A DNA stretch of 64,000 nt from an uncultured Chloroflexia bacterium (GCA_963810065.1 CAWELX010000007.1:1170154-1234153), one strand, 5' to 3'; positions 12,277 through 37,366 are shown, counted from the stretch's first letter. Notes: a model not told the origin generated them from the letters alone. Program-made: numbers and translations.

Positions 12277-12329
12277 GTGGGCGTGGCACATCCGCGGCGG
12301 GCGGGCACGCGAAACCCGGGGTAGCATGC

Positions 12330-12353
12330 AACCGACCGACCAGTCGGTCGGTT
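12330..12353. promoter_or_regulatory. Perfect 11-3-11 palindrome AACCGACCGAC-CAG-GTCGGTCGGTT, a candidate TetR operator, immediately downstream of a TAGCAT (-10-like, 12321-12326) element
   Basis: Direct reading. It sits 43 bp upstream of the TetR-domain gene start at 12396, the classic autoregulatory position for TetR-family repressors. Confidence 0.6.
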
Positions 12354-12395
12354 TTCGGGCGCGACGCCCGACACAGGAGCCAGGCCGGCCCAGAG

Positions 12396-20340: not shown

Positions 20341-22598
20341 GCCCGGCGCTGGTCCTCCCGCTCGCGCTCCGGCGCCACGCTGCCGCGCGCCCCACGGACC
20401 TCGCGATCCGCGATGCCGGGGGCGACACTTCGTACGCCGGCCTCGACCAGTCCCTGGATCGGGTGGCGTCCGCCCTGCAGGCCTCGGGTATCGCCCCCGG
20501 TGACCGGGTGGCCCTGCTCGCGCCGCCATCGGCCGGGTCGCTGGCGCTCCTGCTCGGCATCCTGCGGATGGGCGGCATCGCCGTCCCGCTCGGGATGCGC
20601 CTCACGCGCCGCGAGATCGGGGAGTCGCTGGCAGCAGCATCGCCGGCGCTGATCGTCCACGACGCGGCGTTCAACGGCATCGCCACCGGCCACGGCGTGC
20701 CGGGCGTCGCTCCGGCCGACCTCGTCGAACGCGGCCGCGGGGTGGTGCCGGGCGAAGCCGACATCGGCCCGGCCGCGCCCGCCGTGGCCGTGCTCACGTC
20801 CGGGACCACCGGGCGGCCGAAGGCGGCGCTCCTGTCGCACGTGGCCCTGGCCGCGAGCGCGGAGGCGTGGACGGCCGCGCTGCCGGCCGCGACGGGGTGG
20901 CTCCTGTGCCTCGCGATGTCGCACGTCGCCGGACTCGGGGTGGCATGGCGGGCGCTGGGCGCCGGCAGGCCGCTCCACGTCGCGACCGGCTTCGAGGCGG
21001 GCAGCGTGCTCGACGACCTGCGCGGCCCGGGGGCGCCGAGCCACCTCTCCCTCGTCCCGGTCCAGCTGGCGCGCCTGCTCGACGCCGCGGGCGGAGGGCC
21101 GCCGCCCCGGACGCTGCGCGCGGTGCTCCTGGGGGGTGCGCCGATCCCGCCGGCCCTCGTGCTCCGTGCCGCCGCGGCCGGATGGCCGGTCGTGCCGAGC
21201 TACGGGCTGACGGAGGCCGGCTCCGGGGTGACCGCGCTGCCAGCCGACGAAGCCGCGGCCACGCCCGACTCAGCCGGGCGGGCGCTCCGCGGCGTCGCGG
21301 TCCGGATCGCCGAGCCGGGTCCCGACGGGGTGGGGGAGATCCAGGTCCGCACCCCGGCCGCCTTCTCCGGGTACCTGGGGCGCCAGGATCTGTCCGCGGC
21401 GGCCTTCACGCCCGACGGCTGGCTGCGCACGGGCGACGCGGGCCGCCTCGACGTGGTCGGCCGGCTGTTCGTCGCCGACCGGCGCGCCGACCTCGTCGTC
21501 GCGGGCGGCGAGAACGTCCTGCCGGCCGAGGTGGAGGCTGTCCTGGAGAGCCATCCGGCCGTCGCGGAGGCCGGCGTGGCCGGCCGCCCGGACCCGACGT
21601 GGGGCGCCGTCCCGGTGGCCGGGCTCGTGCTGCGCCCGGGGGCCGTCGAGCCCTCCGATGACGAGCTCCGCGCCTGGTGCCGTGAGCGCCTGGCGTCGTA
21701 CAAGGTCCCGGCCGCGTTCCTGCGCCTCGACGAGCTCCCCCGCACCGCCTCCGGCAAGCTCCGCCGAGGCGAGCTTCGCGACCGCCTCACGCCGCTCGTG
21801 GTCGTGCTGCACGCCACCCTCTCGACGGGCCGCCAGCTGGCCCCGCTCGTGCGTGAGCTGGCGGCAGGCGGGGACCTACGCGTCGTGGCCCCGGACCGCC
21901 GGGGGAGCGGCGAGCATCGCCTGGAGCCGCCACGCGCCGTCTCGATGGACGAGCACGTGGTGGACCTGGAGGGGCTCCTCGACGCGGAGGGTGTCGGTCG
22001 CGCCGTCGTGCTCGGCCACAGCTTCGGGGGCGTCGTGGCCCTCGAGGCGGCGGCCAGGCTGCCGGAACGCATCGCGGGCGTGGTCGCCTACGAGCCGCCA
22101 TACGGGCCGCTCGCCGACGCCCGCACGCAGCGAGCCTTCGCGCTGGTCGCGCGGGCGACCGCTGATGCCGCGGCGCGCGCAGGGGCGCCCGCCGCGGCAC
22201 GCGCCTTCATGCGCGGCGTTGGGGGCCGGGGAGCGTGGGAGACCCTGCCGGAGCGCAGCCGGACGTTCCTCGAGGAGGAGGGTGGGGGAGCCGTCGCGGA
22301 CGCAGGCATGGCCGGCCTCGACCCGTCGGCGCTGGCCGGCATCGCCTGCCCGGTCACCATCCTCACGGGCAGTGCCTCGGATCCTTTCTATGCCCCGATC
22401 GCGGACGCCCTTGCCGCCCGGATCCCCGGCGCCCGCCGGGCCGTCCTGGCGGGGCTGCGCCACACCGCGCCGATCACCGAGCCGTCGCCCGTCGCGGTGG
22501 CCCTGCGCGAGGCGCTGGTGGCCGGACAGGCGCCCGGCCTGGGAACCCCGACCCCATCTCGACCGCCGGCCGCCGCCCCTCCAGGAGAGCCCGCATGA
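20337..22598 (+). CDS. menE: o-succinylbenzoate--CoA ligase MenE (aa 1-~485) fused to a C-terminal alpha/beta-hydrolase domain (aa ~490-753)
   Basis: The adenylation domain has AMP-binding motifs LTSGTTGRPKAALLSH, ..PSYGLTEAG.., ..RTGDAGRLD.., ..YKVPAAFLRLDELPRTASGKLRR. With no intervening stop it continues as LVVVLHATLSTGRQL...VVLGHSFGGVVALEAAARLPERIAGVVAYEPPYGP... (GHSFGG nucleophile elbow). Confidence 0.75.
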   Translation: MSPALVLPLALRRHAAARPTDLAIRDAGGDTSYAGLDQSLDRVASALQASGIAPGDRVALLAPPSAGSLALLLGILRMGGIAVPLGMRLTRREIGESLAAASPALIVHDAAFNGIATGHGVPGVAPADLVERGRGVVPGEADIGPAAPAVAVLTSGTTGRPKAALLSHVALAASAEAWTAALPAATGWLLCLAMSHVAGLGVAWRALGAGRPLHVATGFEAGSVLDDLRGPGAPSHLSLVPVQLARLLDAAGGGPPPRTLRAVLLGGAPIPPALVLRAAAAGWPVVPSYGLTEAGSGVTALPADEAAATPDSAGRALRGVAVRIAEPGPDGVGEIQVRTPAAFSGYLGRQDLSAAAFTPDGWLRTGDAGRLDVVGRLFVADRRADLVVAGGENVLPAEVEAVLESHPAVAEAGVAGRPDPTWGAVPVAGLVLRPGAVEPSDDELRAWCRERLASYKVPAAFLRLDELPRTASGKLRRGELRDRLTPLVVVLHATLSTGRQLAPLVRELAAGGDLRVVAPDRRGSGEHRLEPPRAVSMDEHVVDLEGLLDAEGVGRAVVLGHSFGGVVALEAAARLPERIAGVVAYEPPYGPLADARTQRAFALVARATADAAARAGAPAAARAFMRGVGGRGAWETLPERSRTFLEEEGGGAVADAGMAGLDPSALAGIACPVTILTGSASDPFYAPIADALAARIPGARRAVLAGLRHTAPITEPSPVAVALREALVAGQAPGLGTPTPSRPPAAAPPGEPA

Positions 22599-23440
22599 CG
22601 ACCCCGCGCGAGGCGCGCGACGCGCACGACCCGACCCCCTCCGGCCTCGCCACCGAGCGTGGCAACGCCGCGGCGCCGGCCGAGGTGGGCGCCATGTTCG
22701 ACCGGATCAGCGGTGTCTACGACCCGATGAACCTCGTCATCAGCGCGTTCCAGGAGCCGCGCTGGCGGAAGCGGGCGGTCGCCGTCGCGGCGCTGAAGCC
22801 CGGCGGCCGGGCGATCGACATCGCGAGCGGCACCGGCAAGGTCGCCGCCGACCTTCTGCGCTCGGCGCAGCCCCGCGGCGAGGTGCTTGGCGTCGACATC
22901 AGCCCGGGCATGATCGAGGTCGCCCGCAGGCGCCACGAAGGTCGGCCTGGGCTTACGTTCGTGGTGGGCGACGCGATGGCCCTGCCGGCCGAGGCTGACC
23001 GCTTCGACGCCGCCACGATCGCCTTCGGGATGCGCAACCTGCCCGACTACACGAAGGGGTTCGCCGAGATGGCCCGGGTCGTCCGTCCGGGCGGGAAGGT
23101 GGTCTGCCTGGAGATCGCCCGGCCGCGCAGCCGCGTGGCGCGCGTGATGCGCTGGTGGTTCGACCGCGTCGTGCCGGTCATCGGCAGGGTCGCCGGCCAG
23201 GGGGACGCCTACGCGTACCTCGTTCGCAGCGTCCAGAACTACCCGTCCCCGGAGCGCATCGCCGAGGTCATGCGCGGGGCCGGCCTGGTGGGCATCCGCT
23301 GGATCGGCATGTCGGGCGGCATCGTCACGATCCATGTTGGGACGGTGCCACCGAACGTCCCCGGAGGGCCCGGACCGGGTGCTACCCGGATCATCAGCGT
23401 CGCCGACGCCGTGCTCCAGGAGCGCCGCACCGGCCGATGA
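22596..23440 (+). CDS. ubiE: Demethylmenaquinone methyltransferase (UbiE/MenG, class I SAM MTase)
   Basis: FDRISGVYDPMNLVISAFQEPRWRK...AIDIASGTGKVA (SAM motif I) ...FDAATIAFGMRNLPDY...AYAYLVRSVQNYP is the canonical UbiE/MenG sequence. The start overlaps the menE stop. Confidence 0.85.
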
Positions 23441-23502
23441 TCGTCAGCGGCCGAGGCTGCTGATCAGAAGCGGCCCAGGCCGTTGATCCGCGGTTGCGTG
23501 GC

Positions 23503-24314
23503 CTACCCCTTGCGGCGGTAGCTCCAGATCGCGAGCGGGGCGAAGACCGCGACCAGGCCGACGATCCAGCCCGCAGCCAGCAGCACGTTCCCCGCTTCGG
23601 GGACGCCGATGATGAGGCCGCGGGCGGCGTTGACGACGACCGTGACCGGGTTCGCCTCGGCGATCGGCTGCAGCCACTCCGGCATGGTCGAGATTGGGAC
23701 GAACGCCGAGCTCACGAAGGTCAGCGGGAAGACGGGGATGAAGATGGCTCCCTGCGCAGCCTGGGCCGACTTGGCGCGGAGGCCGATGTTGGCGGCCAGC
23801 CAGCTGATGGCATAGCCGAACAGCGTCACGAGCACGAGCGCCAGGATGAACTCGGCGAAGCTCCCCGTGAAGCGGAAGCCGATCAGGAACCCGACCAGGG
23901 TCATGATCATGACGGTGTAGGCGTTCCGGAGCAGGTCGGCGAACGTCTTGCCGATCAGGACCGCGGACGGCGCCATCGGCAGGGAGCGGAAGCGGTCGAT
24001 GATCCCCTTCTGGAGGTCCTCGGCGAGGCCGACCGCCGTGCTGGTCCCGCCGAACACGACTGTCTGGACGAAGATCCCGGGCATGAGGAACGTGATGTAG
24101 GTGACGCCGGGAGTCTGGATCGCGCCGCCGAAGACGAAGGCGAAGAGCAGCACGAACATGATCGGCGTGATCGTGTCGATCACGAGGAGCTGCGGGTTGC
24201 GCACGACAGCCAGCATGTTGCGCCAGGCGATCGTGATCGAGTCACTGACGATCCACAGGGGAGAGCGGCGGATCCGCAGGGCAGGTCGCCCCGCGGCGGG
24301 GGCGGTCAGGGCGG

Positions 24315-24318
<4 letters not shown>
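23503..24318 (-). CDS. ABC-2 type transporter permease
   Basis: 271 aa with 6 predicted TM helices and an ABC-2 family layout. It ends in TAG, showing TAG is a genuine stop here. The start overlaps the ATPase stop. Confidence 0.85.
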
Positions 24319-25355
<1,037 letters not shown>

Positions 25356-25467
25356 GGGAGACCTCGTGTACCGGCAGGTCGGGTGCTGCCGGCACCCTCC
25401 AGTTCGGAGGTCGAGGCGTTACGGATGGGTCGGCCCCGGCCGGCCCCGACGCGCACGTAGCCCTGCC

Positions 25468-26298
25468 TCAGTACCAGGGCCAGGGCACGGCCGGCCAGTC
25501 CGGGTGCGGCTGCGGGAACCGGCCGCTCCGGAGCAGCTTCTCGATCCGCGTGTTCGTCGCCTCCAGCTCGTCGCCCGCGAGGTGGGGCTCCAGTTGCCCG
25601 CGGATGCCGGGCAGCGCAAGCCGCAGGCGCGCCAGGGCCTCCGCCTCGCGCGGTGCCAGCCGCGTGCCGCGCCAGCCCCACAGCACGGTTCGGAGCTTGG
25701 GTTCCACGCTGAACGTGACCCCGTGGTCGACGCCCTGGATGATCCCGTCCTCCCGGACCAGCAGGTGGCCGCCCTTCCGGTCGGCGTTGTTGACGACGGC
25801 GTCGAAGAGCGCGATCCGGCGCAGCCGCGGATCCGCGGCCCGGACCAGCTCGACGACGTCGCGGTCCTCGCGAATCTCGACCCACAGCTGGAGCATGCCC
25901 GGCCCCACCGGCGCGTCCGAGCGGAAGACCGTGGGGGGCACCACGTCCCAGCCGCTGGCCTGGGAGACGATGAAGGCCGCCACTTCGCGATGGGCCAGGG
26001 TGCCATCCTCGAAGTCCCACAGCGGCCGCTCGCCGCGAATCGGCTTGTAGACGGCGGCAGCCACGACGTCGCCGCGCCCCGGGACCGTGCCGTGGACCGC
26101 GACGAGGAGCGTCACGTTGGAGGCCTGGACCAGGCGCCCGACGATCTCGATCTCGCCGCGCTCGAGGAAGGGAAGCGCCGTGGCGGGCGGCAGGGCCACC
26201 GCCGGCGGGAGGGCCGGCCCGACCTCCTCGTCGGGCCCGGACGGCTCGGACGGCCAGGCCTCGCCGGCCTCGTCGGCGCGGCGCGTCTCGTCCGTCAC
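25468..26298 (-). CDS. SCO1664-family protein (PI3/4-kinase-like fold, Actinobacteria-restricted family)
   Basis: 276 aa. ..GSLQLWV...DAVVNNADRKGGHLLV..GVDHGVTF resembles the SCO1664/TIGR03843 family. Its position next to DUF3090 and the MSMEG_4193-type phosphomutase matches the known conserved triad. Confidence 0.6.
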   Translation of the reverse strand: MTDETRRADEAGEAWPSEPSGPDEEVGPALPPAVALPPATALPFLERGEIEIVGRLVQASNVTLLVAVHGTVPGRGDVVAAAVYKPIRGERPLWDFEDGTLAHREVAAFIVSQASGWDVVPPTVFRSDAPVGPGMLQLWVEIREDRDVVELVRAADPRLRRIALFDAVVNNADRKGGHLLVREDGIIQGVDHGVTFSVEPKLRTVLWGWRGTRLAPREAEALARLRLALPGIRGQLEPHLAGDELEATNTRIEKLLRSGRFPQPHPDWPAVPWPWY

Positions 26299-26365
26299 GG
26301 GCGGCGCCCTGCGCGGTGTGGGTCGCCGCGGCGGGGACCCGCGCGGCCGGGGCCTGCGCGGCGGG

Positions 26366-26945
26366 TCAGTGGACGTACCCGTTGCGACGCGGGCACAGGT
26401 GGCCGGTGGGGTCCAGGGGCTGACCGCACAGCGGGCACGGCAGCCGGCCCGCCGCGACCGTGCGCAGGGCCCGTTCGACGAACGCCCGGGCGCGTGCCGG
26501 CGTCAGGCGGATGCGGACGAGGTCCGGCCCGTCGGGATCGTCGTCCTCGAGCTCGAGATCCACGTCGGGCTCCTCGCCCTCCTCTTCGTCGTCCTCCACC
26601 TCGAGCTGCGCCCGGGCCTCGACGACGATCTCGTCGCTGTCGCCGTCCCAGGCCAGCGTCATCGTGCCGACGCGGAACGCCTCGACGAGCGGCTCGTCGA
26701 GGGACCCGGTGTCGTCGTCGCCCGGCAGCGAGGGCCTCCGGGACGTTGACGCCCCGTCGCGAGAGCTCGGCGAGGAGGAGCGCCATCCGTTCGGCCAGCA
26801 CCTGCACCTGGACCTTCTCCAGCACGACCGAGACGAGCGCGCTGCCGCGCCGTGCCTGGAGGAAGAAGGTCCGGTTGCCCGGCTGGCCGACGGTGCCGCT
26901 GACGAACCGGTCCGGGAGGCCGAAGTCGTAGATGCGTCGAGACAT
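26366..26945 (-). CDS. DUF3090 (SCO1663-like) protein, apparently frameshifted once
   Basis: N-term MSRRIYDFGLPDRFVSGTVGQPGNRTFFLQARRGSALVSVVLEKVQVQVLAERMALLLAELSRRGVNVPEALAAG (frame of ORF 26295..26945). The C-term is in the frame of ORF 26366..27250: ..DDDTGSLDEPLVEAFRVGTMTLAWDGDSDEIVVEA...RLPCPLCGQPLDPTGHLCPRRNGY (the DUF3090 Cys cluster). The shift is at ~26735 in a G/C run. Confidence 0.6.
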
Positions 26946-26954
26946 GCCGCGACT

Positions 26955-27626
26955 CTACCGCGCCCGGCGTCGGGTCGCCGGGTGCAGTGTTCCGCGCCGT
27001 CGGGCGGGCGCCAGCGAGACGACGCTGCCGCCCGTGTCGTTGACCCGCTCGACGTGCGTCCCTGCCGTCGCGTAACGCACCACCGATAGGGAGCAGGGGT
27101 CCACGCCGATTCGCTGGAAGCCGTCGAGATGGAGGCCCAGCGCGTCGGCGAGGACGGCCTTGATGACGTCACCGTGGCTGACCACGGCGTAGGTGGCGTC
27201 GGCACCGAGCGTCGCGTTCCAGCGCCGGACCGCCGCCACGGCGCGGGCACTCATGTCCGCGAGGCCTTCGCCGTCGGGAAAGACCGCGGCCGAGGGCCGG
27301 GCCTGGACCACCGCCCAAAGCGGCTCCCGGCGGAGCGCCTTGAGATCGCGGCCGGTCCACGTTCCGTACCCGACCTCGCCGAAGGCCTCGTCCACGTGGA
27401 GCGGCGGCGCCGGATCGCGACCCGCCAGGATCGCATCGGCCGTCTCCCGGCAGCGCTCAAGCGGCGAGCACACCACGGCCGCCAGCGGGACCGCGCGCAG
27501 CCGCTCGCCCATGGCCGTGGCCTGGGCACGTCCGCGCTCGTCGAGGTGCACGCCGGGCGTCCAGCCGGCCAGCACGGGTCCGGTGAGCGGGGTGAGGCCG
27601 TGGCGGACGAAGAGGACCGTGGTCAC
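26955..27626 (-). CDS. Histidine-phosphatase superfamily protein (MSMEG_4193-type putative phosphomutase)
   Basis: The GTG start VTTVLFVRHGLTPLTG carries the RHG catalytic motif of PGM/histidine phosphatases, and there is a second His in ..VVSHGDVIKAV. It is the third member of the actinobacterial triad. Confidence 0.7.
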   Translation of the reverse strand: MTTVLFVRHGLTPLTGPVLAGWTPGVHLDERGRAQATAMGERLRAVPLAAVVCSPLERCRETADAILAGRDPAPPLHVDEAFGEVGYGTWTGRDLKALRREPLWAVVQARPSAAVFPDGEGLADMSARAVAAVRRWNATLGADATYAVVSHGDVIKAVLADALGLHLDGFQRIGVDPCSLSVVRYATAGTHVERVNDTGGSVVSLAPARRRGTLHPATRRRAR

Positions 27627-27634
27627 CCGGTCGC

Positions 27635-28207
27635 TCAGGCGGGGGTGACGTCGGCGCCGACGTCGAGCGCCGGAGAAGGGTGCCCGTGCTCGCCGTCGTG
27701 CTCGGGTGCACGCTCGCCGGCCCACCCCGGGATCTCCTCGCCCCGCTCCGAGGCGATGACCTGCAGTCCTCCGAACAGCGTGAAGCCGGTGATCTCCAGC
27801 CCGGGCTCGTCGAGGGACGGCTCGGGTGCGTCGGTCGAGTTCATGGCGCCGCCGAAGATCGCCGGACCGCTGATGCGAACCGGCACCCCCGGGGCGACCA
27901 CGACCCGCGTGCCGGCGAAGACCGTGCGGACGTCGAGCTGCGCCCCGGCCGGGTCGATCGTCACCTCGCGAAGGTCGACGTCCACGCCCGCATACCAGCT
28001 GATGACACGGCCGCCGCGAAACGATGGCCCGCTGCCCTTGAACTCGACGCCGTCCATCACGGCCACGAGGTCGATGTCGTCCGACGCCGGGTCCGGGATC
28101 GACGGCGCCTTCTTCTTGAAGCTGAGAGCCGCGAGCGCGCTTGCGATGCCGGCGACGATCGAGACGCCGATGACGAGGCCGAGAAGCCGGGCGAGGAAGC
28201 GGAACAT
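27635..28207 (-). CDS. Membrane-anchored protein with a LiaF/DUF2154-like C-terminal domain (putative cell-envelope stress protein)
   Basis: The real start MFRFLARLLGLVIGVSIVAGIASALAAL (TM anchor) is at 28207. A beta-rich domain follows (..RVISWYAGVDVDLREVTIDP..LDVRTVFAGTRVVVAPGVPVRISGPAIFGG). Upstream codons of the track ORF are artefact. Confidence 0.45.
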   Translation of the reverse strand: MFRFLARLLGLVIGVSIVAGIASALAALSFKKKAPSIPDPASDDIDLVAVMDGVEFKGSGPSFRGGRVISWYAGVDVDLREVTIDPAGAQLDVRTVFAGTRVVVAPGVPVRISGPAIFGGAMNSTDAPEPSLDEPGLEITGFTLFGGLQVIASERGEEIPGWAGERAPEHDGEHGHPSPALDVGADVTPA

Positions 28208-28284
28208 GGGGGACCTCCAGGGGCTGCTGACGCCGGCGTCGATGCTACCTCCCGCGGACGATCGAGGCCCGCTACGCTGGCAGG

Positions 28285-29796
28285 ATGGACCGGCTGGAGC
28301 GGGAGGCGGAGCGCCTCGAGGGCGCCGTCTGGGGTCACCTCGTGGGGGACGCCCTCGGCGTGCCGTACGAGTTCCGGCCGCCCGGCGGGATCGGCGAGAT
28401 CCGTTTCGGCGCCTCCGGCACCCACGGCCAGCCGGCGGGCACGTGGAGCGACGACGGAGCGCTGATGCTGGCCCTGCTGGACTCGCTCGTGCGGGCCGAC
28501 GCCGACCCGGGGCGGGCCTCCATCCGCTTCGACCCGGAGGACCAGGGCCGCCGGATCCGGGCGTGGTACGAGCGCGGCGCCTACACGCCCGACGGCGACG
28601 GCGCGTTCGACATCGGCGGCGCCACCCTGGCCGCGGTGCGCGCGCTCCAGGAGGGCGTCCCGGCCGATCGATCGGGGAGCGTGAAACCGAACGCGCTGGG
28701 CAACGGCTCGCTGATGCGAATCCTCCCCGTCGCACTGGCCGGCCGTCGCAGGGACGACGCGACCCTCGTCGCCTGGGCAAGCGCGGCGTCGGCGGTGACC
28801 CACGGGGAGCCACTGCCTCGTGCGACCTGCGCGCTCTACGTCCTGCTCGCCTGTCGGCTTCTCGTGCACCCCGATGATCCCGGGGCGGCGATGGCGGACG
28901 CTCGCCGCGCGCTGGCCCGGCATGCGGCGGCGGCCGGCCTCGACGGCGCCCTGGGCGAGCTCCTGGCCTGGGAGCGACGGACCGGCGGCGGCCACGTCGC
29001 CGACGCGTTCTGGTCGGCATGGGACGTCGTCGTCGCAGCGACCTCCTACCAGGAAGCGGTCGAGGGCGCAGTCCGCCTCGGCAACGACACGGACACGACG
29101 GCCGCGATCGCCGGCGGGCTGGCGGGTATCCGCTGGGGCGTCGGGGGGATCCCGCAGCTGTGGCTGGCCCGGATGCGCGGCCGGGAGATCGCCGGCGAGC
29201 TCCTCGACCGGCTGCTCGCGGAGGCGGGATGGCGGACCTCCACGACAAGCCCGCTGCGGGTGGACTGGGTGCCGCTCCGCGACGCAGGCGACCTCGCGGG
29301 CGCCGGCGGCGCCCTGGGAATGACGCTCCTGCCGGGCAAGAAACGGCGCGGGTACGGTGGCCCCCAGTGGCGCGACGCCGCAGCCGATGCCCGCTGCCTG
29401 CGCGACGTCCATGGCTGCAGCACGCTCCTGCTGCTGGTTGAGGACATCGACCTCGACATCAGCCGTGCGTGGGGGACGATCCCGGCCCTGGAGGCGGCCG
29501 GGATTCGCGTGATCCGGCACCCGATCCGCGACATGGGCGTGCCCCGCGACGCGCCCGCCTTCGGGGCCATGCTCGACGCGATCCGCGGGCGTGTGCTGGG
29601 CGGCGAGCGGATCGTCGTGGCCTGCCGGGGCGGCCTGGGCCGAACCGGGACCGCGGTGGCCTGCCTGCTCGTCGACGCGGGCGTGCCCGCTTCCGAGGCG
29701 ATCCGCCGGGTCCGGGCGGCCCGGCCGGGCACGATCGAGCGGCACACGCAGGAGGAGTTCGTCCGGGGGTGGCAGCGCCGGGGGGCGGACGGATGA
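28285..29796 (+). CDS. Fusion protein: ADP-ribosylglycohydrolase (ARH/DraG fold, aa 1-~300) + CX5R protein-tyrosine/dual-specificity phosphatase domain (aa ~340-503)
   Basis: N-term: AVWGHLVGDALGVPYEF...GTWSDDGALMLALLDSL...GNGSLMRILPVAL...GNDTDTTAAIAGGLAGIRWG (ARH metal-binding Asp/Thr motifs). C-term: ..IRVIRHPIRDMGVP...RIVVACRGGLGRTGTAVACLLV carries the exact CX5R P-loop. The stop overlaps the ribokinase start (ATGA at 29793-29796). Confidence 0.75.
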   Translation: MDRLEREAERLEGAVWGHLVGDALGVPYEFRPPGGIGEIRFGASGTHGQPAGTWSDDGALMLALLDSLVRADADPGRASIRFDPEDQGRRIRAWYERGAYTPDGDGAFDIGGATLAAVRALQEGVPADRSGSVKPNALGNGSLMRILPVALAGRRRDDATLVAWASAASAVTHGEPLPRATCALYVLLACRLLVHPDDPGAAMADARRALARHAAAAGLDGALGELLAWERRTGGGHVADAFWSAWDVVVAATSYQEAVEGAVRLGNDTDTTAAIAGGLAGIRWGVGGIPQLWLARMRGREIAGELLDRLLAEAGWRTSTTSPLRVDWVPLRDAGDLAGAGGALGMTLLPGKKRRGYGGPQWRDAAADARCLRDVHGCSTLLLLVEDIDLDISRAWGTIPALEAAGIRVIRHPIRDMGVPRDAPAFGAMLDAIRGRVLGGERIVVACRGGLGRTGTAVACLLVDAGVPASEAIRRVRAARPGTIERHTQEEFVRGWQRRGADG

Positions 29797-30803
29797 GCGG
29801 GGGACGTGTCGTCGTCGTCGGGTCCGTGAACGTGGACCTGGTGGTCGTCACGCCGCGCCTGCCGGGACCCGGCGAGACCGTGACGGGCGGCGACGTCGAG
29901 CGGCATCACGGCGGCAAGGGCGGCAACCAGGCGGTCGCCGCCGCGCGCCTGGGCGCCCACGTCGTCTTCGTGGGTGCCGTCGGCAACGACGACTTCGGGG
30001 CCGCCGCGCGAGACGCGCTCGAAGGGGAGGGGATCGACGTCGCGCACCTCGCGACGGTGGGACGGCCGACCGGCGTCGCGCTGATCGTGGTCGACGAGCA
30101 CGCGGAGAACCTCATCGCCGTGGCGCCAGGCGCCAACGGAGCCCTGGACGAGGACGCCGTTGCCGCGACGCTTGCCGCGCTGGCCCTGGGGCCCGGCGAC
30201 GTGGTGCTGGCATGCCGCGAGATCCCGCCCGGGGCGGTGCGGGCCGCGCTCGCGGCCGCCCGGGGGGCCGGGGCGACCGGCATCCTGAACCCGGCGCCGG
30301 CCGACGGGTTCGACGGGGCGACGATCGCGCTCGCCGACGTCCTGACGCCGAACGAGGCCGAGCTCGCCATCATCGGCGGAGACGGGTCGCCGGAGGTGGC
30401 AGCCCGATCGCTGCTGGCCGGCGGGCGATCCGGGCGATCGATCGTCGTGACGCTTGGCGCGGCGGGCGCGCTGGTGGTACCGGCCGACGGGCCGGCGCTG
30501 GAGATTCCGGCGCGACCGGTCGTCCCGGTCGACACGACCGGCGCCGGCGACGCGTTCAACGGCGCGCTGGCCGCTGGGCTCGCCGAGGGTCGTGGCCTGG
30601 TCGGCGCCGCCACGCGGGCAGTCGCCGCGGCCGGGCTCTCGACGACGCGGATGGGGGCCCGGGGTGGCATGCCGACCTCCGCCGAGCTCGCAGCCGCCGA
30701 GCCCGCCTTCACCGAGCCGGCATTCACCGAGCCGAAGAGAGGCGCGGAGCCCGGGGTCGTCGAGCCGGCAGCCACCGTGCCGGAGGACGCGACCGGCTCG
30801 TAG
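29793..30803 (+). CDS. rbsK: Ribokinase (PfkB family)
   Basis: MSGGRVVVVGSVNVDLVVVTPRLPGPGETVTGG...GGKGGNQAVAAARLGA (ribokinase GG/anion-hole motifs) ...PVDTTGAGDAFNGALAAGL (DTxGAGD catalytic motif). It has a small AFTEPAFTEP tandem repeat at the C-terminus. Confidence 0.85.
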   Translation: MSGGRVVVVGSVNVDLVVVTPRLPGPGETVTGGDVERHHGGKGGNQAVAAARLGAHVVFVGAVGNDDFGAAARDALEGEGIDVAHLATVGRPTGVALIVVDEHAENLIAVAPGANGALDEDAVAATLAALALGPGDVVLACREIPPGAVRAALAAARGAGATGILNPAPADGFDGATIALADVLTPNEAELAIIGGDGSPEVAARSLLAGGRSGRSIVVTLGAAGALVVPADGPALEIPARPVVPVDTTGAGDAFNGALAAGLAEGRGLVGAATRAVAAAGLSTTRMGARGGMPTSAELAAAEPAFTEPAFTEPKRGAEPGVVEPAATVPEDATGS

Positions 30804-31061
30804 CGGGCCCTCGCCTCCACGGAGAGCGGTCACCGCCACGATCGTGGTGCCGCGAGACCACGCGACCCTGTTGCAGCGGCCGAACGGCCCTTGCACCCGA
30901 GCGGCGATCCGGCGAGACTTCCGGCGTCCGGCAATGCGGGCGAATAATCGCGCGTGAAGCGCGGTCGCCCAGAATGCCGGCGAGATCGGCCGCGACGAGC
31001 GATCGTCGGCCGGGCCCGCCCGGGACGACGGCGAATGGCGACCAGGGGGCGAAATCGGGTC

Positions 31062-32798
31062 ATGACCGCAGGCCGCGTGCGCACCATCGTCGGGCTGCTG
31101 CTCGTCGGGCTGCTGCTCGTCGGGCCGGCGCCCGCCGGCGCCAGCGCCGCGATGCCCGCTCCCCGCGTGGTGCTCGTCGTGGGGCCGGTGGGGGATCTCA
31201 CGGAGTCGTACCGCCGCTGGGCGCGCGAGGGCGCGGCCGAGGCCCGTCGCTGGACGAAGGACGTCGTCGAGATCTACTCCCCGGACGCGACGTGGCCGCG
31301 GGTGCGGGCCGCCCTGCAGGGCGCCTCGGTCGTCGTGTATCTCGGGCACGGCAACGGCTTCCCCAGCCCGTACGGGACCAGGCTTCGCCCGTCCGTCCAG
31401 AATGGTTTCGGTCTCAACCCGGTCGGCGGTCGCGGTGACGCGACGCACCAGTACTTCGGCGAGTCTCTCATCGCCAAGCAGGTGCGCCTGGCGCCGGGGG
31501 CAGTTGTCCTGCTCTTCCACCTGTGCTACGCATCGGGCCTCGCGGAGCCCGGCGTCCCCGAGGGTGCCGAGGCAGGGGCCCGCCAGCGCGTTGACAATTT
31601 CGCCGCCGGCTTCATGGCCGCCGGGGCGTCGGCCGTCGTGGCCGATGCGTACGCCTCTCCCGCGCCGTACCTTCGGACCCTCCTCGGGCAGAAGAAGTCC
31701 GCCCGGACGGCGTGGGAACACTCGGCGACCGCCAACGGCCACGTCCGCGCCTTCTCCAGCGAGCGGACGCCCGGCGCCATCGCGCTGATGGACCCGGAGC
31801 AGCAGTCCAGCGGCTTCGCGCGGTCGCTCGTCCTCGCCGCGGGCGCCGCCGCCGGCATCGTCCCGGCGGGACCCATGCCCGGAACGACGCCGCCGCCGGG
31901 TGGATGGGAGATCGTCGTGCCGCCGCAGCCGTCCATCGCGCCCGACGCGTTCGACCTGGGCGCCCAGCCCGGGACGCCGGCGCTTGCCGGGATGCCGCTG
32001 GCCGGGTCCACGGTCCGGCTGCGCCTTCCCGTCGAGGCACCCGCAGGGGTGGCTCTCGCGAGCGCGTACCGCCTGGGCACGCGCTGGATCCCGCTCGACG
32101 AAGCGAGTGCGTTGGCCGGACCGGCGGGCGGCGATCCCGCCGCCAGCCCGGATCCCGCGGCGGTCGCCGACCCGGCGCTCGTCGCGCGCGAGTCGGCCGC
32201 GACGCTCGTGGACGTCGTCCCCGCGTCGGTCGCCGGGGGTGAGGTCGCCGGGACCATCACCCTGCCCGACAGGGCCGGGCGCTATCGCCTGGAGGTCACG
32301 ATCCATGATCCCGAGGGGGTCGCCCTCCCGTACGCGGTGCAGGCCTCGATCCCGGGCGTCGTCGTCCACGTCGGCGGTCCCGGGGCGGCGTGGCTGGACG
32401 CGCCGCCGGCGGTGTCCGTGACCGCGGGGACGCTGGCCTCCATCCAGGTCGACGTCACGAACGGAGAGGCCGAAGCCTGGGGCAGCTGCGAGCCTCGGCA
32501 ACGAGGCTACGGCCCGGACGACACCGGCGACTGCCCGACGGTGCGCCTCGTCGGCCGCTGGGTCGCGGTCGACGGCGCCGGCACCGCCGCGCCGATGACA
32601 CGGGAGCTGTCGATTCCCGCTGCGACGGCGCAGGCCGCCTGGATGACCGGGCCCGTGCCCTTCGACCCTGGAACCTACCTGCTCGTGGCCAGCCTGGAGC
32701 GTTCGTCGGGCGGTGGTTCGCCGCACGTGCTGGGCCGCCCGACCACCGTCACGGTCCAGGTGCTCGCCAGCCCGCTGGTGCCCACGCCGGTCAACTGA
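31062..32798 (+). CDS. Secreted protein, paralog A: N-terminal caspase/gingipain-like (clan CD-like) putative cysteine-peptidase domain + C-terminal beta-rich (Ig/FN3-like) domains
   Basis: Signal peptide MTAGRVRTIVGLLLVGLLLVGPAPAGASAA. VVLVVGPVG...GASVVVYLGHGNG...(~50 aa)...AVVLLFHLCYASG gives a hydrophobic strand-His-Gly, then strand-Cys, spaced as in caspase-hemoglobinase-fold peptidases. A ~260-nt 5' leader precedes it. It is 45-50% identical in its N-domain to the gene at 39149-41335. Confidence 0.55.
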   Translation: MTAGRVRTIVGLLLVGLLLVGPAPAGASAAMPAPRVVLVVGPVGDLTESYRRWAREGAAEARRWTKDVVEIYSPDATWPRVRAALQGASVVVYLGHGNGFPSPYGTRLRPSVQNGFGLNPVGGRGDATHQYFGESLIAKQVRLAPGAVVLLFHLCYASGLAEPGVPEGAEAGARQRVDNFAAGFMAAGASAVVADAYASPAPYLRTLLGQKKSARTAWEHSATANGHVRAFSSERTPGAIALMDPEQQSSGFARSLVLAAGAAAGIVPAGPMPGTTPPPGGWEIVVPPQPSIAPDAFDLGAQPGTPALAGMPLAGSTVRLRLPVEAPAGVALASAYRLGTRWIPLDEASALAGPAGGDPAASPDPAAVADPALVARESAATLVDVVPASVAGGEVAGTITLPDRAGRYRLEVTIHDPEGVALPYAVQASIPGVVVHVGGPGAAWLDAPPAVSVTAGTLASIQVDVTNGEAEAWGSCEPRQRGYGPDDTGDCPTVRLVGRWVAVDGAGTAAPMTRELSIPAATAQAAWMTGPVPFDPGTYLLVASLERSSGGGSPHVLGRPTTVTVQVLASPLVPTPVN

Positions 32799-32819
32799 CG
32801 GACGCTCGCCCGCCTGCGG

Positions 32820-33173
32820 TCAACAGGTGACGTGGAGGATCGCCCGCACCTTCGAGCGCTTGCGCTGGCCGACCAGCCGGCATGCGTCGGCCGTTGGGAG
32901 CGCCACCACCTCGATCCCGCGGCGGCGCGCCTCGTCGATGACCTCCGGCATGATTGGCAGCTGTCCGTCGGCTCCGGTTCCGACGATGAGCTCGCCGCCG
33001 CCCCACGGGATGGCCTCCGCGAGGGACAACGGGGTGTGCCCGTAGGCCGCGCGCCATGGCTTCGACGCGGTCTTGTCCCGCCGTCGGACCTCGCCGCGGT
33101 CGATCACCACGTCGAAGGTGCAGCGCTGCCCGTCAACCTCGATCTCGCCGAATCCCAGGAGCCGCGCCTGCAT
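32820..33173 (-). CDS. Mth938-like domain protein (DUF498/DUF598)
   Basis: 117 aa. ..CTFDVVIDRGEVRRRDK...GTGADGQLPIMPEVIDEARRRGIEVVALPTADACRL resembles the Mth938 family. Confidence 0.7.
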   Translation of the reverse strand: MQARLLGFGEIEVDGQRCTFDVVIDRGEVRRRDKTASKPWRAAYGHTPLSLAEAIPWGGGELIVGTGADGQLPIMPEVIDEARRRGIEVVALPTADACRLVGQRKRSKVRAILHVTC

Positions 33174-33315
33174 CCCCGACCGCCTCGCGTCGCACCCGCA
33201 ACCGCGGGCCTTCCGACGTGGCTCACTCTACGCCCGCAGACGATTGCCACCCGCCAGGACGGCCTTCCCGCGCTCTGCCTTACGAACCGCTACCCTGATG
33301 TGACATTTGCCACAC

Positions 33316-33350
33316 GAACAAGGACCAAGGGATCCCTTGTGCCCTTGTTC
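33316..33350. promoter_or_regulatory. Near-perfect palindrome GAACAAGG-acc-AAGGGATCCCTT-gtgc-CCTTGTTC in an AT-richer divergent intergenic region (candidate operator or structured RNA element)
   Basis: Direct reading. The inner 12-bp perfect palindrome is centred on GGATCC, and the outer 8-bp arms are exact reverse complements. It lies between the divergent Mth938 (-) and small ORF / GT4 (+) genes. A TGTGACAttTGCCACA quasi-palindrome sits just upstream (33297-33312). Confidence 0.5.
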
Positions 33351-33421
33351 CGTTGGGCTCACGATCCACTGACGCGCGGGCCGCCGCCGCCCACGTGGTC
33401 CACGCCTGCATGGTGATTCAC

Positions 33422-33541
33422 ATGATCGAACTCATCGCACTCGTCGGGGTCCTCGGCGCCGCCCTGCTGGGCGTTCGCAAGGTGAACGACAGGCCGCTCG
33501 ACCGCGTCGACCGGCGCCTCTGGCCCTACCTCCACCACTGA
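33422..33541 (+). CDS. Possible 39-aa hydrophobic small protein
   Basis: MIELIALVGVLGAALLGVRKVNDRPLDRVDRRLWPYLHH: one TM helix, GGTGA 6 nt upstream of the ATG, inside the 500-bp divergent intergenic region. No homology argument is possible here. Confidence 0.2.
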   Translation: MIELIALVGVLGAALLGVRKVNDRPLDRVDRRLWPYLHH

Positions 33542-33673
33542 GACCGCGCTCTCGCGCCAGGCGAGTCGCCGCCTCCTGAGGTCGCCCGACGAGGGCGGCC
33601 TCTTCGTTTGCGGCGCGAGTGTCCCACCCGGCCAACCCGACGACGGACTCCCGAAGGGTGGCAGGATGGGGGC

Positions 33674-34918
33674 ATGCGGATCCTGCTCTGGCACGGCTAC
33701 CTGCTCGGCGGCACCGGCTCCAACGTCTACACGCGGCTGCTTGCGCGCGCCTGGATGCAGGCCGGCCACGACGTTACGGTGTTCTGCCAGGACCCGCGGC
33801 CCGACCTGTACGACCTGGGCGGGGCCCGCGTCGTGCGCCCCGACGTCGGTGGCCTGCTGCCGGTGTTCGTGCTGGATCGATACGAGGGGTATGAGGCCAG
33901 GCTGATCGGGGACTGCAGCCGCGAGGAGCTCGATCGCTGGGTGGAGGCGAATGCCCGCGCCATTGCCGAGCACCTCCCGGCCGACGTCGTGTTCTGCAAC
34001 CACGTCCTGCTCGGGGGGCCGGTCGGGGTGGCGGTCGGAGCGCGCTTCGCGGTGAAGGCCCACGGTTCAGAGCTCGAGTACGCGATGCGGGACAACCCGA
34101 TCCTCGCAGCGTGGGGGCAGGACTGCCTGCGCCAGGCCGCTGCCACCTTCGTCGGCTCGGCGCACGTTCGCCGGGTCCTGGAGGACGTGTGTGGCCACGT
34201 CGACCGCGTCCACGAGGTTCCGCCGGGGGTGGACATCGACGACTGGCAGCCGGAGGAGCGGGCGACCGCGCTCGCCGAACTCCTGGACGAGGCGCGCCGC
34301 GACCCACCGAACCCGGGGAACGCCCGGGAGCGGCTGCCCGACGAGGGCAACGCCGAGCGGCTCGCCCAGTTCCTCGCGGAGGACCGGCCGACGGTCGTGT
34401 ACTTCGGGAAGCTCATGCACAACAAGGGCGTGCACCTGCTCCTGGAGGCGCTCGACGACCTCGACGCGCGGGCCGTCATCGTGGGGTTCGGGGACGACCG
34501 ACCGGAGCTGGAGCGGCTGGCGGGCCACGGCGCCCTGTTCACCGGCCCGCTGGAGCACCGGCACCTGGTGCACCTGCTGGCCCTCGCGGACGCCTGCGTC
34601 GTCCCGTCGATCTTCCCGGAGGCCTTCGGGATGGTGGCCGCCGAGGCCGCCGCGACCGGGTGCCCGCCGCTCGTCGCGCGCCACTCCGGGCTCGCGGAGA
34701 TCGCCGCCGGGCTCGCCGAGGAGTACCCGCCGGCGCTGCGGCACCTGGCCGGCTTCACGTCGGGCGACGTGGGCGATCTCCGGGCCAGGCTCGCCGAGCT
34801 GCTGGCCCTCGGAACGGCCGAGCGGGAGGCCATTCGCGCATCCGCCCGGCGGGCGGCAGTCGAACGGTGGAGCTGGACGAGCGTGGCGCGCCGCCTGCTG
34901 GAGCCGCTCGCACGCTGA
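33674..34918 (+). CDS. GT4-family (GT-B fold) glycosyltransferase
   Basis: MRILLWHGYLLGGTGSNVYTRLLARAWMQAGHDVTVF (GT4 N-domain) ...VVYFGKLMHNKGVHLLLEAL...PSIFPEAFGMVAAEAAATGCPPLVARHSGLAEI (EX7E-type C-domain motif). GGATGGGGG RBS. Confidence 0.8.
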   Translation: MRILLWHGYLLGGTGSNVYTRLLARAWMQAGHDVTVFCQDPRPDLYDLGGARVVRPDVGGLLPVFVLDRYEGYEARLIGDCSREELDRWVEANARAIAEHLPADVVFCNHVLLGGPVGVAVGARFAVKAHGSELEYAMRDNPILAAWGQDCLRQAAATFVGSAHVRRVLEDVCGHVDRVHEVPPGVDIDDWQPEERATALAELLDEARRDPPNPGNARERLPDEGNAERLAQFLAEDRPTVVYFGKLMHNKGVHLLLEALDDLDARAVIVGFGDDRPELERLAGHGALFTGPLEHRHLVHLLALADACVVPSIFPEAFGMVAAEAAATGCPPLVARHSGLAEIAAGLAEEYPPALRHLAGFTSGDVGDLRARLAELLALGTAEREAIRASARRAAVERWSWTSVARRLLEPLAR

Positions 34919-35258
34919 CGGGCCGCCACCCCCGTACCGGCGACCGGTGCTCCGCGTCGGTCATCAGGCGGACGTGGGGCCCGGATGACCTGTCGCCACA
35001 AGGCTGGCGCGTCGGCCCGGAGTGCTGCGTCGGCCCCGGAGTGTTGCGTCGGCGGGTTCCATCGGGACGTCCCCAGGGCCTGCGGCCCTCGCTCGCCCGG
35101 TGCGCTTCCCACCCTCCGAGCGGAGCAGGGCGCCCGCCCGGATGCCCTGATCGACTTCGCAGAGGGCAGCCGGTTCGCGAACCCCTGGGCGGCCGTCCGG
35201 CCAGGCATCGCGCCCTACAGGAGGTCGTCCTCGCGAAGGCGGCTTGACAGCGGGTTAC

Positions 35259-35888
35259 TCAGGCGTCGTGGACGAGGCCATGCTCCACGGCGTACCGGGT
35301 CAGCGCCTTCGGGCCGCGCAGGCCCAGCTTGGCTGACAGGTTCGCGACGTGGCGGCGGACCGTGTGCGGGCTGATGCCGAGCGCTCGGCCCACGTCGGCA
35401 GCCGACTTGCCCGCCGCGATATGCGCGAGAACCTCGCGTTCGCGGACACTCAGGGGACTTCCCGCGTCCATCCACCGGAGGGAGTCGTCGATCACCGTCT
35501 CGGCGATGCTGCTGTGGAGGTAGCGCTCGCCGCGGGCGACGGCCCGGATGGCCTCGACGAGCTCACTCGTGCGCGCGCCCTTCACGACGTACCCGGCCGC
35601 CCCGGCGCGGAGGGCCTGCCGAATGGTCTCGGCATCTCGGTGCATCGTCAGCACCAGGACACGGAGACCGGGCCGACGGTTCGCAAGGTCGCGAAGCAGC
35701 GAAAGGCCGTCGTCGTTTGGGTAGGTGATGTCGACGAGCATCACGTCGGGGGAGCTGTTGGCGAGGAGATCGAACGCCCCTTCGCGGTCAGCAGCCTCAC
35801 CGACCACGACGATCCCAGGCTGGAGGGCGAGGACATGGCTGAGCGCCTCGCGCACGAGGTGATGGTCGTCCACGAGCGCGACGCGCAC
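35259..35888 (-). CDS. NarL/LuxR-family response regulator
   Basis: GTG start VRVALVDDHHLVREAL..., receiver domain (..DVMLVDITYPNDDG..), C-terminal LuxR HTH (LSVREREVLAHIAAGKSAADVGRALGISPHTVRRHVANLSAKLG). Confidence 0.85.
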   Translation of the reverse strand: MRVALVDDHHLVREALSHVLALQPGIVVVGEAADREGAFDLLANSSPDVMLVDITYPNDDGLSLLRDLANRRPGLRVLVLTMHRDAETIRQALRAGAAGYVVKGARTSELVEAIRAVARGERYLHSSIAETVIDDSLRWMDAGSPLSVREREVLAHIAAGKSAADVGRALGISPHTVRRHVANLSAKLGLRGPKALTRYAVEHGLVHDA

Positions 35889-35971
35889 GGGCAGAGGGGA
35901 CCTGGGGTCGGCCCCGGCCCTTCCCGCAGAAGCCGTGGGCGTCGAATTGCCCGAGCGTGTCCCGTCCGCCG

Positions 35972-37123
35972 TCACCGAACCAGCGCCCCGGACTCGACCG
36001 CACCTGTCGACGCGACATCGGCGGGTTCGGGCGCCAGGGCGGCCGCGCTCGCGCCCGTCAGGGGCACGTCCAGGCGCACGACCGTGCCGCTGCCCGGCGT
36101 CGAAATGACGTGGAGGGTTCCGCGGACCGCCGCGGCGCGGTCGCGCATGCTCGCCAGCCCGAGGCCTCGTGCGTCGATGCCGGCGGCGTCGAAGCCGATC
36201 CCGTCGTCGATCACCTCGATGCGGAGCTGTCGAGCGACGCGCTGGACCGAAATCCGGATCCGGCCCGGCTGGCCGTGCCGCATGGCATTGCCGAGTGCTT
36301 CCTGGACGATACGGTACGTGTCGACCTCCCTGGCGGGATCGAGGAGGTCCGGGCGGTAGAGGGAGGCGTCGGCCGAGAACTCCACCGGCATCCCGGCTGA
36401 GGCCGCCAGCTCCCGGAGGGCGGCCACCAGCCCGGTCTCCCGAAGGCGCGCCGGGCGCAGCCGGAACGCGACGCCGCGGACGTCCTCGAGCGCCCTGCCA
36501 GCCATCTCGCGGGCCCTGCGGACGGCATCCCGGCCGGCCTCGTCGGGTGCCCGTGGGTCCGCCAGCGCCGACTCCGCTGCGTCGAGGGTGAGCGCCAGGG
36601 CGGTCATCGTTTGTCCGACACCGTCGTGGAGGTCCGCCGCGAGGCGCCGTCGCTCGTCCTCCTGGGCCGTCAGGAGCCGGTCGCTCGCCGCGCGGTAGAG
36701 CGCTGCATACCGGTGCCCGGTCGTCGTCACGCGGTTGGCCATGACCGCCACGATGAAGGCGATGATGGCCATGAGCGGCCACTCTTCGAGATCCAGGTCG
36801 GCCATGGCAGCAGCCGTCGGCCCGGAATCGCCGTTGGCGATCGCGGCATAGACGAACACGAAGAGCGTCGCCAGCGCGATGCGCAGGATTGCCAGCCGCA
36901 GGCCGAAGGCGAAGGTGAAGACTTCGACCGCCAGGACGATCCAGAGCCCGTGAAGGAGGATGTCCGGGTCACCCAGCTGGGCGACGACGGCAGCCGCCAC
37001 CGCGACGCCCGTCGCGTCGAGCGCGATCAACAGCCAGGGCGGGCGCGCGACGAGCCAGCCGTCCCCGCGGCCAGGCTGCGCGACACCCCCACCACCTCGG
37101 TACACGCCGGCCCCCATCACCAA
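35972..37123 (-). CDS. Membrane sensor histidine kinase, NarX/DesK type (HisKA_3 + HATPase_c)
   Basis: 3-4 N-terminal TM helices. H-box RRLAADLHDGVGQTMTAL, then ..RIVQEALGNAMRHG...DDGIGFD.. It is the cognate kinase upstream of the LuxR RR. Confidence 0.8.
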   Translation of the reverse strand: MVMGAGVYRGGGGVAQPGRGDGWLVARPPWLLIALDATGVAVAAAVVAQLGDPDILLHGLWIVLAVEVFTFAFGLRLAILRIALATLFVFVYAAIANGDSGPTAAAMADLDLEEWPLMAIIAFIVAVMANRVTTTGHRYAALYRAASDRLLTAQEDERRRLAADLHDGVGQTMTALALTLDAAESALADPRAPDEAGRDAVRRAREMAGRALEDVRGVAFRLRPARLRETGLVAALRELAASAGMPVEFSADASLYRPDLLDPAREVDTYRIVQEALGNAMRHGQPGRIRISVQRVARQLRIEVIDDGIGFDAAGIDARGLGLASMRDRAAAVRGTLHVISTPGSGTVVRLDVPLTGASAAALAPEPADVASTGAVESGALVR

Positions 37124-37366
37124 CTGCCAGCCCGGCGCCAGCGCCGGCCATCATGTTCATCATGTCGTGACCGGTCTCGGACCATTGGAATGGTCGAAAA
37201 CGACTATAGCTGGATTGTCCAGCCCACCCTCATCCTCGTGGCTGCCCGTCGAAGAGGGCAATCGGAACAGGTAGGGCGGTCGACCGCAGACCCGTGGCTG
37301 TCGACACGCAGGGGAGGCCCGGGAGCCGAGGGGAGACTCCGGGCCGACACGGGGTGGGGGATTCAC

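Follow-up and report, generated by a model that had tools for sequence, protein, structure and literature searches.

The 64,000-nucleotide stretch of an uncultured Chloroflexia genome analysed here (GCA_963810065.1, CAWELX010000007.1:1170154-1234153; "the window" below, with a G+C content of about 74%) carries two overlapping plus-strand genes between positions 28285 and 30803. The upstream gene (28285..29796) encodes a 503-residue protein in which an ADP-ribosylglycohydrolase (ARH, also called ARG) domain is joined to a KAP-like cysteine phosphatase, as judged from the open reading frame (ORF), Pfam matches, alignments and an AlphaFold2 model. The downstream gene (29793..30803) encodes a 336-residue ribokinase-type PfkB kinase, recognized by Pfam, NCBIfam and PDB matches. 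From its sequence and modelled structure, the fusion protein is predicted to be a bifunctional enzyme with two intact active sites, conserved across many lineages. An earlier note on this DNA had described the fusion ORF and the overlap of its stop codon with the kinase start codon. Both are present: the two halves have Pfam domains above cut-off, the quoted motifs are found, and the overlap is an ATGA at 29793..29796.

The hydrolase domain spans residues 13-291 (28321..29157, plus strand), where the Pfam family ADP_ribosyl_GH (PF03747) matches over profile positions 1-286 of 287 with an E-value of 1.2e-58 and 199.5 bits (cut-off 26.2). The motif GDALGVPYEF is situated at residues 21-30 and GNDTDTTAAIAGG at residues 266-278. 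Conservation was read from alignments of 16 and of 69 fusion homologues, 51-82% identical. In the latter, D22, S55, D56, D57, D268, T269 and D270 of the hydrolase half are invariant, and T271 and T272 are at least 90% conserved. We take these residues (D22, S55-D56-D57 at 28447-28455 and D268-T269-D270-T271-T272 at 29086-29100), which lie in the motifs GDA, SDD and DTD(T/S)T, to form the binuclear metal site, their role being assigned from DraG and ARH3. The alignment with the homologues begins at M1, so that the start codon is well placed.

The AlphaFold2 model, calculated from the 69-sequence alignment, has a mean predicted local distance difference test score (pLDDT) of 94.3 and a predicted template-modelling score (pTM) of 0.92, with no segment below 50. 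Such confidence implies that the two domains would have a defined relative arrangement. The modelled N-terminal half has the all-alpha ARH fold. Its best Foldseek matches are Listeria Lmo0067 (8za7), Tri1 (6dre), the Thermus thermophilus structure 2cwc and DraG, with target-normalised template-modelling (TM) scores of 0.69-0.85 and a probability of 1.00, whereas the match to ARH3 is poorer (TM 0.57-0.69). DraG, Tri1 and Lmo0067 share the metal-site motifs as well as the fold, but are only 24-30% identical to the window protein, which has an extra phosphatase domain and no partner transferase gene. All three reverse the action of a transferase or toxin, and Lmo0067 comes from an effector-immunity pair of an ADP-ribosyltransferase (ART) and an ARH. 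The hydrolase half falls below the NCBIfam equivalog cut-offs for DraG (TIGR02662, 70.6 versus 337.05) and Tri1 (NF041672, 91.6 versus 490), and by these scores it is related to both and a member of neither equivalog.

The phosphatase domain, of the KAP/CDKN3-like dual-specificity type, comprises residues 315-503 (29227..29793, plus strand) and was delineated by Pfam, PDB and Foldseek matches. PTP-SAK (PF22784, "Swiss Army Knife protein, DSP-PTPase") matches residues 406-493 with 41 bits, and Tc-R-P (PF22785) matches the C-terminal half with 36.8 bits, both against a cut-off of 27. The Pfam models DSPc (18.9 versus 33.5) and CDKN3 (20.3 versus 20.7) remain below their cut-offs on this half. 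The earlier label of a dual-specificity phosphatase (DSP) thus agrees with the fold and with the PTP-SAK and Tc-R-P matches, but not with the generic DSPc model. The C-terminal 185 residues superimpose onto KAP (1fpz) with a TM score of 0.89 and a root-mean-square deviation of 2.0 Å over 185 columns, and the PDB sequence matches are ShufPTP, a Thermococcus protein-tyrosine phosphatase (PTP), SsoPTP and DUSP23. The P-loop C447-R-G-G-L-G-R453 (CX5R; 29623..29643, plus strand), followed by T454, lies within the motif VVACRGGLGRTGTAVACLL at residues 444-462. C447, G450, G452, R453, G455 and Q489 are invariant and T454 is at least 90% conserved. The same holds for the P413-x-x-D416 loop, in which D416 (codon 29530..29532, plus strand) is invariant and P413 at least 90% conserved. 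D416 is situated about 31 residues ahead of the nucleophile, the same placing as in KAP and other DSPs, and from this position it is the candidate general acid. The features whose absence the earlier note had named as fatal to its proposal, the candidate acid Asp among them, are therefore invariant in a confidently predicted structure. KAP/CDKN3, the SsoPTP-type archaeal PTPs and DUSP23 share with the window domain the CX5R(T) P-loop, the upstream Asp loop, the conserved Gln and the fold. KAP is nevertheless only about 22% identical to it, and the window domain differs further in scoring below the DSPc and CDKN3 cut-offs and in being fused to an ARH.

When residues 315-503 alone were searched against 1.84 billion cluster representatives, 1,337 clusters were found at E<=1e-10, many of which represent the domain on its own, in proteins of about 185 residues. 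Among the sampled partners of the domain are an ARH in reverse order (P0152, P0157), a PARG catalytic domain (P0138) and a MavL-like macrodomain ADP-ribosylhydrolase (P0259), the last two fused to a PTP-SAK-type domain. The association of one phosphatase family with three unrelated folds that remove ADP-ribose argues that its substrate would be tied to ADP-ribose chemistry and would not be a generic phosphoprotein. Other sampled partners are tetratricopeptide (TPR) repeats, a GDSL lipase and tandem PTP copies, of which one protein has three; the 1,521-residue P0197 combines GDSL, PTP, TPR and ARH in one chain. These fusion examples came from P0138, P0259, P0197 and P0143. One further protein, P0036, is 98% identical over 69% of the fusion, but is called at 608 residues with the ARH Pfam domain only, and its match to the PTP query covers no more than query residues 1-99. 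This suggests a frameshift in a near-identical assembly, and indel errors may be common in these metagenome-assembled genomes of high G+C content.

The kinase ORF scores 199.9 bits with the PfkB Pfam model (cut-off 25.8), and its 16 best PDB sequence matches are all ribokinases. Its motifs GSVNVDL, GGKGGNQA, PNEAE and DTTGAGDAF line up with those of the ribokinase 6znx and constitute the ribose- and ATP-site set N-x-D, GGKGxNQA, NxxE and DTxGAGD. The best NCBIfam model is ribokinase TIGR02152, with 263.5 bits against a trusted cut-off of 299.65 (NF008353 gives 218 versus 341). The enzyme had been called a canonical ribokinase, which is borne out by the motifs and the PDB sequence matches but not by the trusted cut-off. 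At the C-terminus of the kinase, EPAFT is repeated in tandem (EPAFT-EPAFT) within a tail of low complexity (approximately residues 303-336; window 30700-30803, plus strand), which has no counterpart in several homologues of the clade called at 306 residues.

The fusion TGA (29794-29796) overlaps the kinase ATG (29793) on the plus strand, and an ATGA or GTGA overlap is retained in 9 of 13 close-clade sequences, the window included. Exact 4-nt overlaps are, however, found in 12 of the 40 co-directional adjacent gene pairs of the window (30%) and in 76 of 506 pairs when the genome-derived loci are pooled with it. The idea that the overlap is a special signal was therefore rejected: overlaps are routine in the window, and this one indicates an operon rather than a special relationship between fusion and kinase. 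Gene packing in this genome is very tight, with a run of nine genes (10301-23440) joined by 4-nt overlaps.

The homologue search gave over 100 full-length proteins that share both Pfam domains, and JGI has named several of them "ADP-ribosylglycohydrolase/protein-tyrosine phosphatase". Contigs representing one genome per species contain about 65 fusion loci, all from Chloroflexota and mostly from Candidatus Limnocylindria, presumably the window's own lineage. The fusion is thus not confined to one genome, and in the window lineage its neighbourhood is conserved as well. Neighbouring genes were called by codon-position G+C and clustered, and the recurrent ones were annotated, which resolved four arrangements. 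The window and 13 species-level genomes share type A, which is fully syntenic and has the order ABC-2 transporter, unannotated 276-residue protein, DUF3090, MSMEG_4193-type phosphomutase, LiaF-like gene (minus strand), fusion (plus), PfkB (plus) and a protein of 570-620 residues. Here the fusion is 68-82%, the kinase 68-80% and the ABC ATPase 86-89% identical, and the fusion has diverged at much the same rate as the genes around it.

In type B, which represents another Limnocylindria clade, a CoA_binding_2 gene lies directly 5' of the fusion in 18-20 loci (L034-L037, L040, L042, L045, L047-L050, L053, L055, L056, L059, L065, L092, L093, L098 and L099), and DUF2202, two-component system and FeoB-like genes follow downstream. 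The CoA_binding_2 protein has 160 residues and is encoded co-directionally with the fusion, at a distance of 19-250 nt in the loci measured; it may bind nucleotides as a partner of the fusion. Type C comprises 11 loci in which an NrtR-type regulator (NUDIX + NrtR_WHD) adjoins the fusion in divergent or co-directional orientation, once with a 4-nt overlap; ARPP-1 (PF20208) is found downstream in three of the 11. Between divergent nrtR (minus) and fusion (plus) genes a conserved palindrome TTATAC-N9-GTATAA occurs in L016, L022, L030, L038 and L043, within ...ACTTATACGCG...TGTGTATAAT.GTCAAG, an AT-rich segment in a background of more than 70% G+C. It is a candidate NrtR operator. In type D the fusion stands beside an EEP-family nuclease or a helicase, which is either of the NERD+UvrD type or otherwise UvrD-like. 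A further sample, 80 metagenomic loci retrieved with an alignment that included divergent fusions, yielded many proteins with the order PTP then ARG at 25-44% identity, and occasional ARPP, WYL, NrtR, AAA-ATPase and UvrD neighbours.

Pooling of both samples shows how narrowly the kinase is distributed. Among ARG-PTP loci whose fusion is at least 57% identical to that of the window, PfkB is present in 19 of 21, and in 18 of the 18 that have at least 1.5 kb of downstream sequence. It is present in none of the 61 loci at 46-56% identity (0 of 47 with that much flank) and in none of the 34 at 45% or less (0 of 19), where the order is PTP then ARG in 23 of the 34. In L088, the deepest locus with PfkB, the identity of the fusion is down to about 58%, and the kinase gene follows at a distance of 1.2 kb. 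The ribokinase as a general partner of the fusion was rejected on these counts, 18 of 18 against 0 of 66 farther out, and it is instead a lineage-specific neighbour.

The earlier note was not aware of any characterisation of this domain architecture, which is however not new. Iyer, Burroughs, Anantharaman and Aravind (2022, Viruses 14:1977, PMC9503650, section 3.8) described a widespread ARG-centred system without a coupled ART or sirtuin. In just over 55% of these systems the ARG is coupled to a phosphatase of the rhodanese-phosphatase superfamily, either within one polypeptide or through a neighbouring gene, and a regulator of the Nudix (NrtR-like) or WYL type is present in 42%; accessory genes encode chaperones, Macro/NADAR proteins, restriction-endonuclease-fold nucleases with helicases, and ARPP (PMC9503650). 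The systems were proposed to counter ADP-ribosylation by viral ARTs, with the phosphatase processing the released ADP-ribose further (PMC9503650). Neither the word "ribokinase" nor the CoA_binding_2 protein occurs in that text. In addition to the JGI names, the Pfam families PTP-SAK PF22784, Tc-R-P PF22785 and ARPP-1 PF20208 were built for such fusions.

The window fusion agrees with this class in uniting ADP_ribosyl_GH with a PTP-SAK-type phosphatase in one polypeptide; no ART or sirtuin domain was found in the 17 flanking proteins scanned (approximately 20337-38832). Its orthologues in other Limnocylindria adjoin NrtR, ARPP-1 and NERD/UvrD helicase genes. These type C and type D neighbourhoods match the published description, and the window fusion itself is a member of the ARG plus rhodanese-phosphatase fusions. 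The window locus differs in its stable synteny, in the order ARG then PTP, in the ribokinase of its operon and in lacking the accessory genes. It has the core features of the class, an ARG without ART and a fused rhodanese-phosphatase domain, and not the accessory ones, and looks like a domesticated, minimal version of such a system. The architecture is thus already catalogued, and the window adds a member and a lineage-specific neighbour, not a new kind of system. The cultured organism Leisingera thetidis has a textbook ARG-centric system that would be accessible to experiment, on its conjugative plasmid pBMJM1_5 (NZ_CP109792.1, 83554-94071; L082). This cassette is flanked by insertion sequences and consists of a hypothetical protein, an AAA ATPase, a WYL regulator, the PTP-ARG fusion WP_264214654.1, a PD-(D/E)XK nuclease and a UvrD helicase. 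The PTP half of the Leisingera protein is 38.5% identical to that of the window.

Upstream of the fusion, 77 bp separate it from the divergent LiaF-like gene (28208..28284), a putative promoter region. A block ending ...GCCCGCTACGCTGG immediately before the fusion start codon is common to the window, L001, L002, L005 and L028. A consensus scan of 27500-33300 for promoters and terminators called nothing, and thus no sigma-70-type promoter upstream of the fusion, so that the operon boundaries are defined by gene spacing only. Control of the window operon by NrtR was rejected, since neither an nrtR gene nor a TTATAC-N9-GTATAA site occurs in the 64 kb. The LiaF-like label that the earlier note gave to the membrane protein is backed by a sub-threshold match in a homologue (E 0.0059), the window copy having no Pfam match. 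Further upstream, 23503-27626 (minus strand) is a syntenic block common to the clade, with an ABC-2 transporter, the unannotated 276-residue protein, DUF3090 and a putative MSMEG_4193-family phosphomutase (TIGR03848, 282.7 bits). The DUF3090 gene (26366-26945, minus strand) is apparently frameshifted, with a break near 26,730: its N-terminal 71 residues match DUF3090 in the frame of ORF 26295..26945, and its C-terminal part (...LVEAFRVGTMTLAWDG...CPLCGQPLDPTGHLCPRRNGYVH) is in that of ORF 26366..27250. The break reflects either a pseudogene or an assembly indel.

Downstream of the kinase, 31077-32798 (plus strand; the longest ORF starts at 30954) encodes a protein of 570-614 residues that is retained at this position in at least seven close-clade loci. 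A hydrophobic segment is situated at its N-terminus, and it contains the motifs ...YLGHGNG... and ...HLCYASG.... The protein had been described as caspase-like; it has no match in Pfam, NCBIfam or PADLOC, but the two motifs could form a His/Cys dyad.

Taken together, the fusion is best explained as an ARG plus rhodanese-phosphatase enzyme of the ARG-centric kind that reverses macromolecular ADP-ribosylation, with the kinase recycling ribose in the window lineage, to which we assign a probability of roughly 0.55. The ARH domain would cleave the bond between the ribosyl group and the acceptor of an ADP-ribosylated macromolecule. The acceptor would most likely carry arginine-linked ADP-ribose on protein, because DraG and Tri1 are arginine-specific. 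MavL-type macrodomains are arginine-specific as well, going by their Pfam name and the title of PMC10951314. The modification would have been placed by a foreign or toxin ART, since no transferase gene is coupled to the fusion. The phosphatase would then strip phosphate from the sugar derived from ADP-ribose, or from the same substrate, and in the window lineage the ribokinase, taken as co-transcribed, would recycle the ribose freed downstream of both activities. This recycling step, being lineage-specific, is the weakest link of the mechanism. If ADP-ribose were split into AMP and ribose-5-phosphate, dephosphorylation followed by ribokinase action would constitute a futile cycle, and the role of the kinase is for this reason not chemically compelling.

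Several other observations weigh against the same explanation. The type A context is stably syntenic and not variable, and the 64-kb window contains no Nudix or WYL regulator, ARPP, chaperone, nuclease or helicase. Neither the fusion, the kinase nor three neighbours has a PADLOC match, and assignment to a known defence system was rejected accordingly. Among 72,556 plasmids and 50,697 phages there is no full-length relative of the fusion, the search giving only ARH-only matches and the one PTP-ARG fusion from Leisingera; carriage by mobile elements was thereby rejected. The closest solved relatives of the phosphatase half are protein phosphatases, and a literature search turned up no experimental work on any of the ARG-phosphatase fusions.

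The earlier note had favoured a dedicated ADP-ribose salvage route, in which the ARH would hydrolyse a soluble ribosyl compound (ADP-ribose-1''-phosphate, O-acyl-ADP-ribose or another ribose conjugate), the phosphatase would trim the product and the ribokinase would return the ribose to metabolism. The constant presence of PfkB after the fusion in the 18 informative loci of the lineage, in most cases with overlapping start and stop codons, speaks for it, as does the CoA_binding_2 gene directly upstream of the fusion in the type B loci. There are also precedents: the Rus ribose-utilisation loci of Bacteroidetes, where ARH-like genes cluster with ribokinases (10.1101/574913) as an ARH-family gene and a PfkB kinase lie close together in the window, and E. 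coli yegT-yegU-yegV, where an ARH-like gene and a PfkB kinase gene are likewise joined by 4-nt overlaps. Orthology with the latter was rejected, however, since YegU and YegV share only 26% of their residues with the window proteins and the ribokinase motif GGKGxNQA is absent from YegV; a phosphatase domain is also missing there. The proposal is further weakened by the absence of PfkB within 6 kb of the fusion in all 66 more distant loci with enough flank, by how common the overlaps are, and by the silence of PMC9503650 on ribokinases. The nearest ARH structures reverse macromolecular ADP-ribosylation, and the partners found elsewhere are regulators, nucleases and helicases, not genes of sugar metabolism. 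Salvage is therefore possible but doubtful, resting as it does on a gene that accompanies the fusion in one lineage only. The phosphatase and kinase could also be ordered differently. In one linear route, a pyrophosphatase would trim protein-bound ADP-ribose to phosphoribose, the Cys-phosphatase would remove the 5''-phosphate of this phosphoribosyl "scar", the ARH would free the ribose and the ribokinase would recycle it. The action of the phosphatase on a phosphoribosyl adduct before the ARH is chemically coherent, but its probability is low and the complete route is decidedly improbable. If true, it would be the first enzymatic pathway to remove protein phosphoribosylation and would explain why ADP-ribose hydrolases of three unrelated folds share this phosphatase as a fusion partner.

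It is unlikely that the fusion repairs nucleic-acid ends, a reading favoured by the helicases and nucleases beside related fusions. Here the ARH would take ADP-ribose off the 5'- or 3'-phosphate ends of RNA or DNA, and the phosphatase would then remove the exposed phosphate; some Cys-phosphatases do act on RNA 5' ends. The ARH-like SCO5809 and macrodomains de-modify ADP-ribosylated phosphate ends. In Deinococcus radiodurans the operon DRB0100-DRB0099-DRB0098 encodes a ligase, a PARG and an HD-phosphatase/polynucleotide kinase (PMC11833690), so that an ADP-ribose hydrolase is genetically coupled to a phosphatase and a kinase as in the window, with nucleic-acid ends as the proposed substrate. 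The folds are unrelated, however (macrodomain PARG, HD phosphatase and P-loop polynucleotide kinase). Furthermore, the fusion contains no nucleic-acid-binding domain recognized by Pfam, its ARH half is nearer to DraG and Tri1 than to ARH3-type enzymes, and the window neighbourhood provides no ligase, helicase or nuclease. It is similarly unlikely that the fusion is an endogenous regulatory eraser, a DraG-like switch that would clear a host target of both arginine ADP-ribosylation and Tyr/Ser/Thr phosphorylation, the ribokinase being adjacent by chance. The relationship of the two halves to DraG and to the protein phosphatases SsoPTP, DUSP23 and KAP would suit such a role, as would the stable, housekeeping-like context in which 4-nt overlaps are common. 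Yet no ART, sirtuin or protein kinase was found among the flanking proteins scanned, and the repeated fusion of the phosphatase to three unrelated ADP-ribose hydrolase folds points away from protein dephosphorylation.

ARG-phosphatase fusions are widespread, and the phosphatase half alone accounts for more than 1,300 clusters at 50% identity. The window lineage has a stripped-down version of the system, the enzyme and a ribokinase without regulators or effectors. It lends itself to biochemistry, since coupling the reaction to the ribokinase would reveal directly if free ribose is among the products. If the predicted undoing of ADP-ribosylation imposed by phages or toxins is true, these fusions would represent a new class of bacterial counter-defence.

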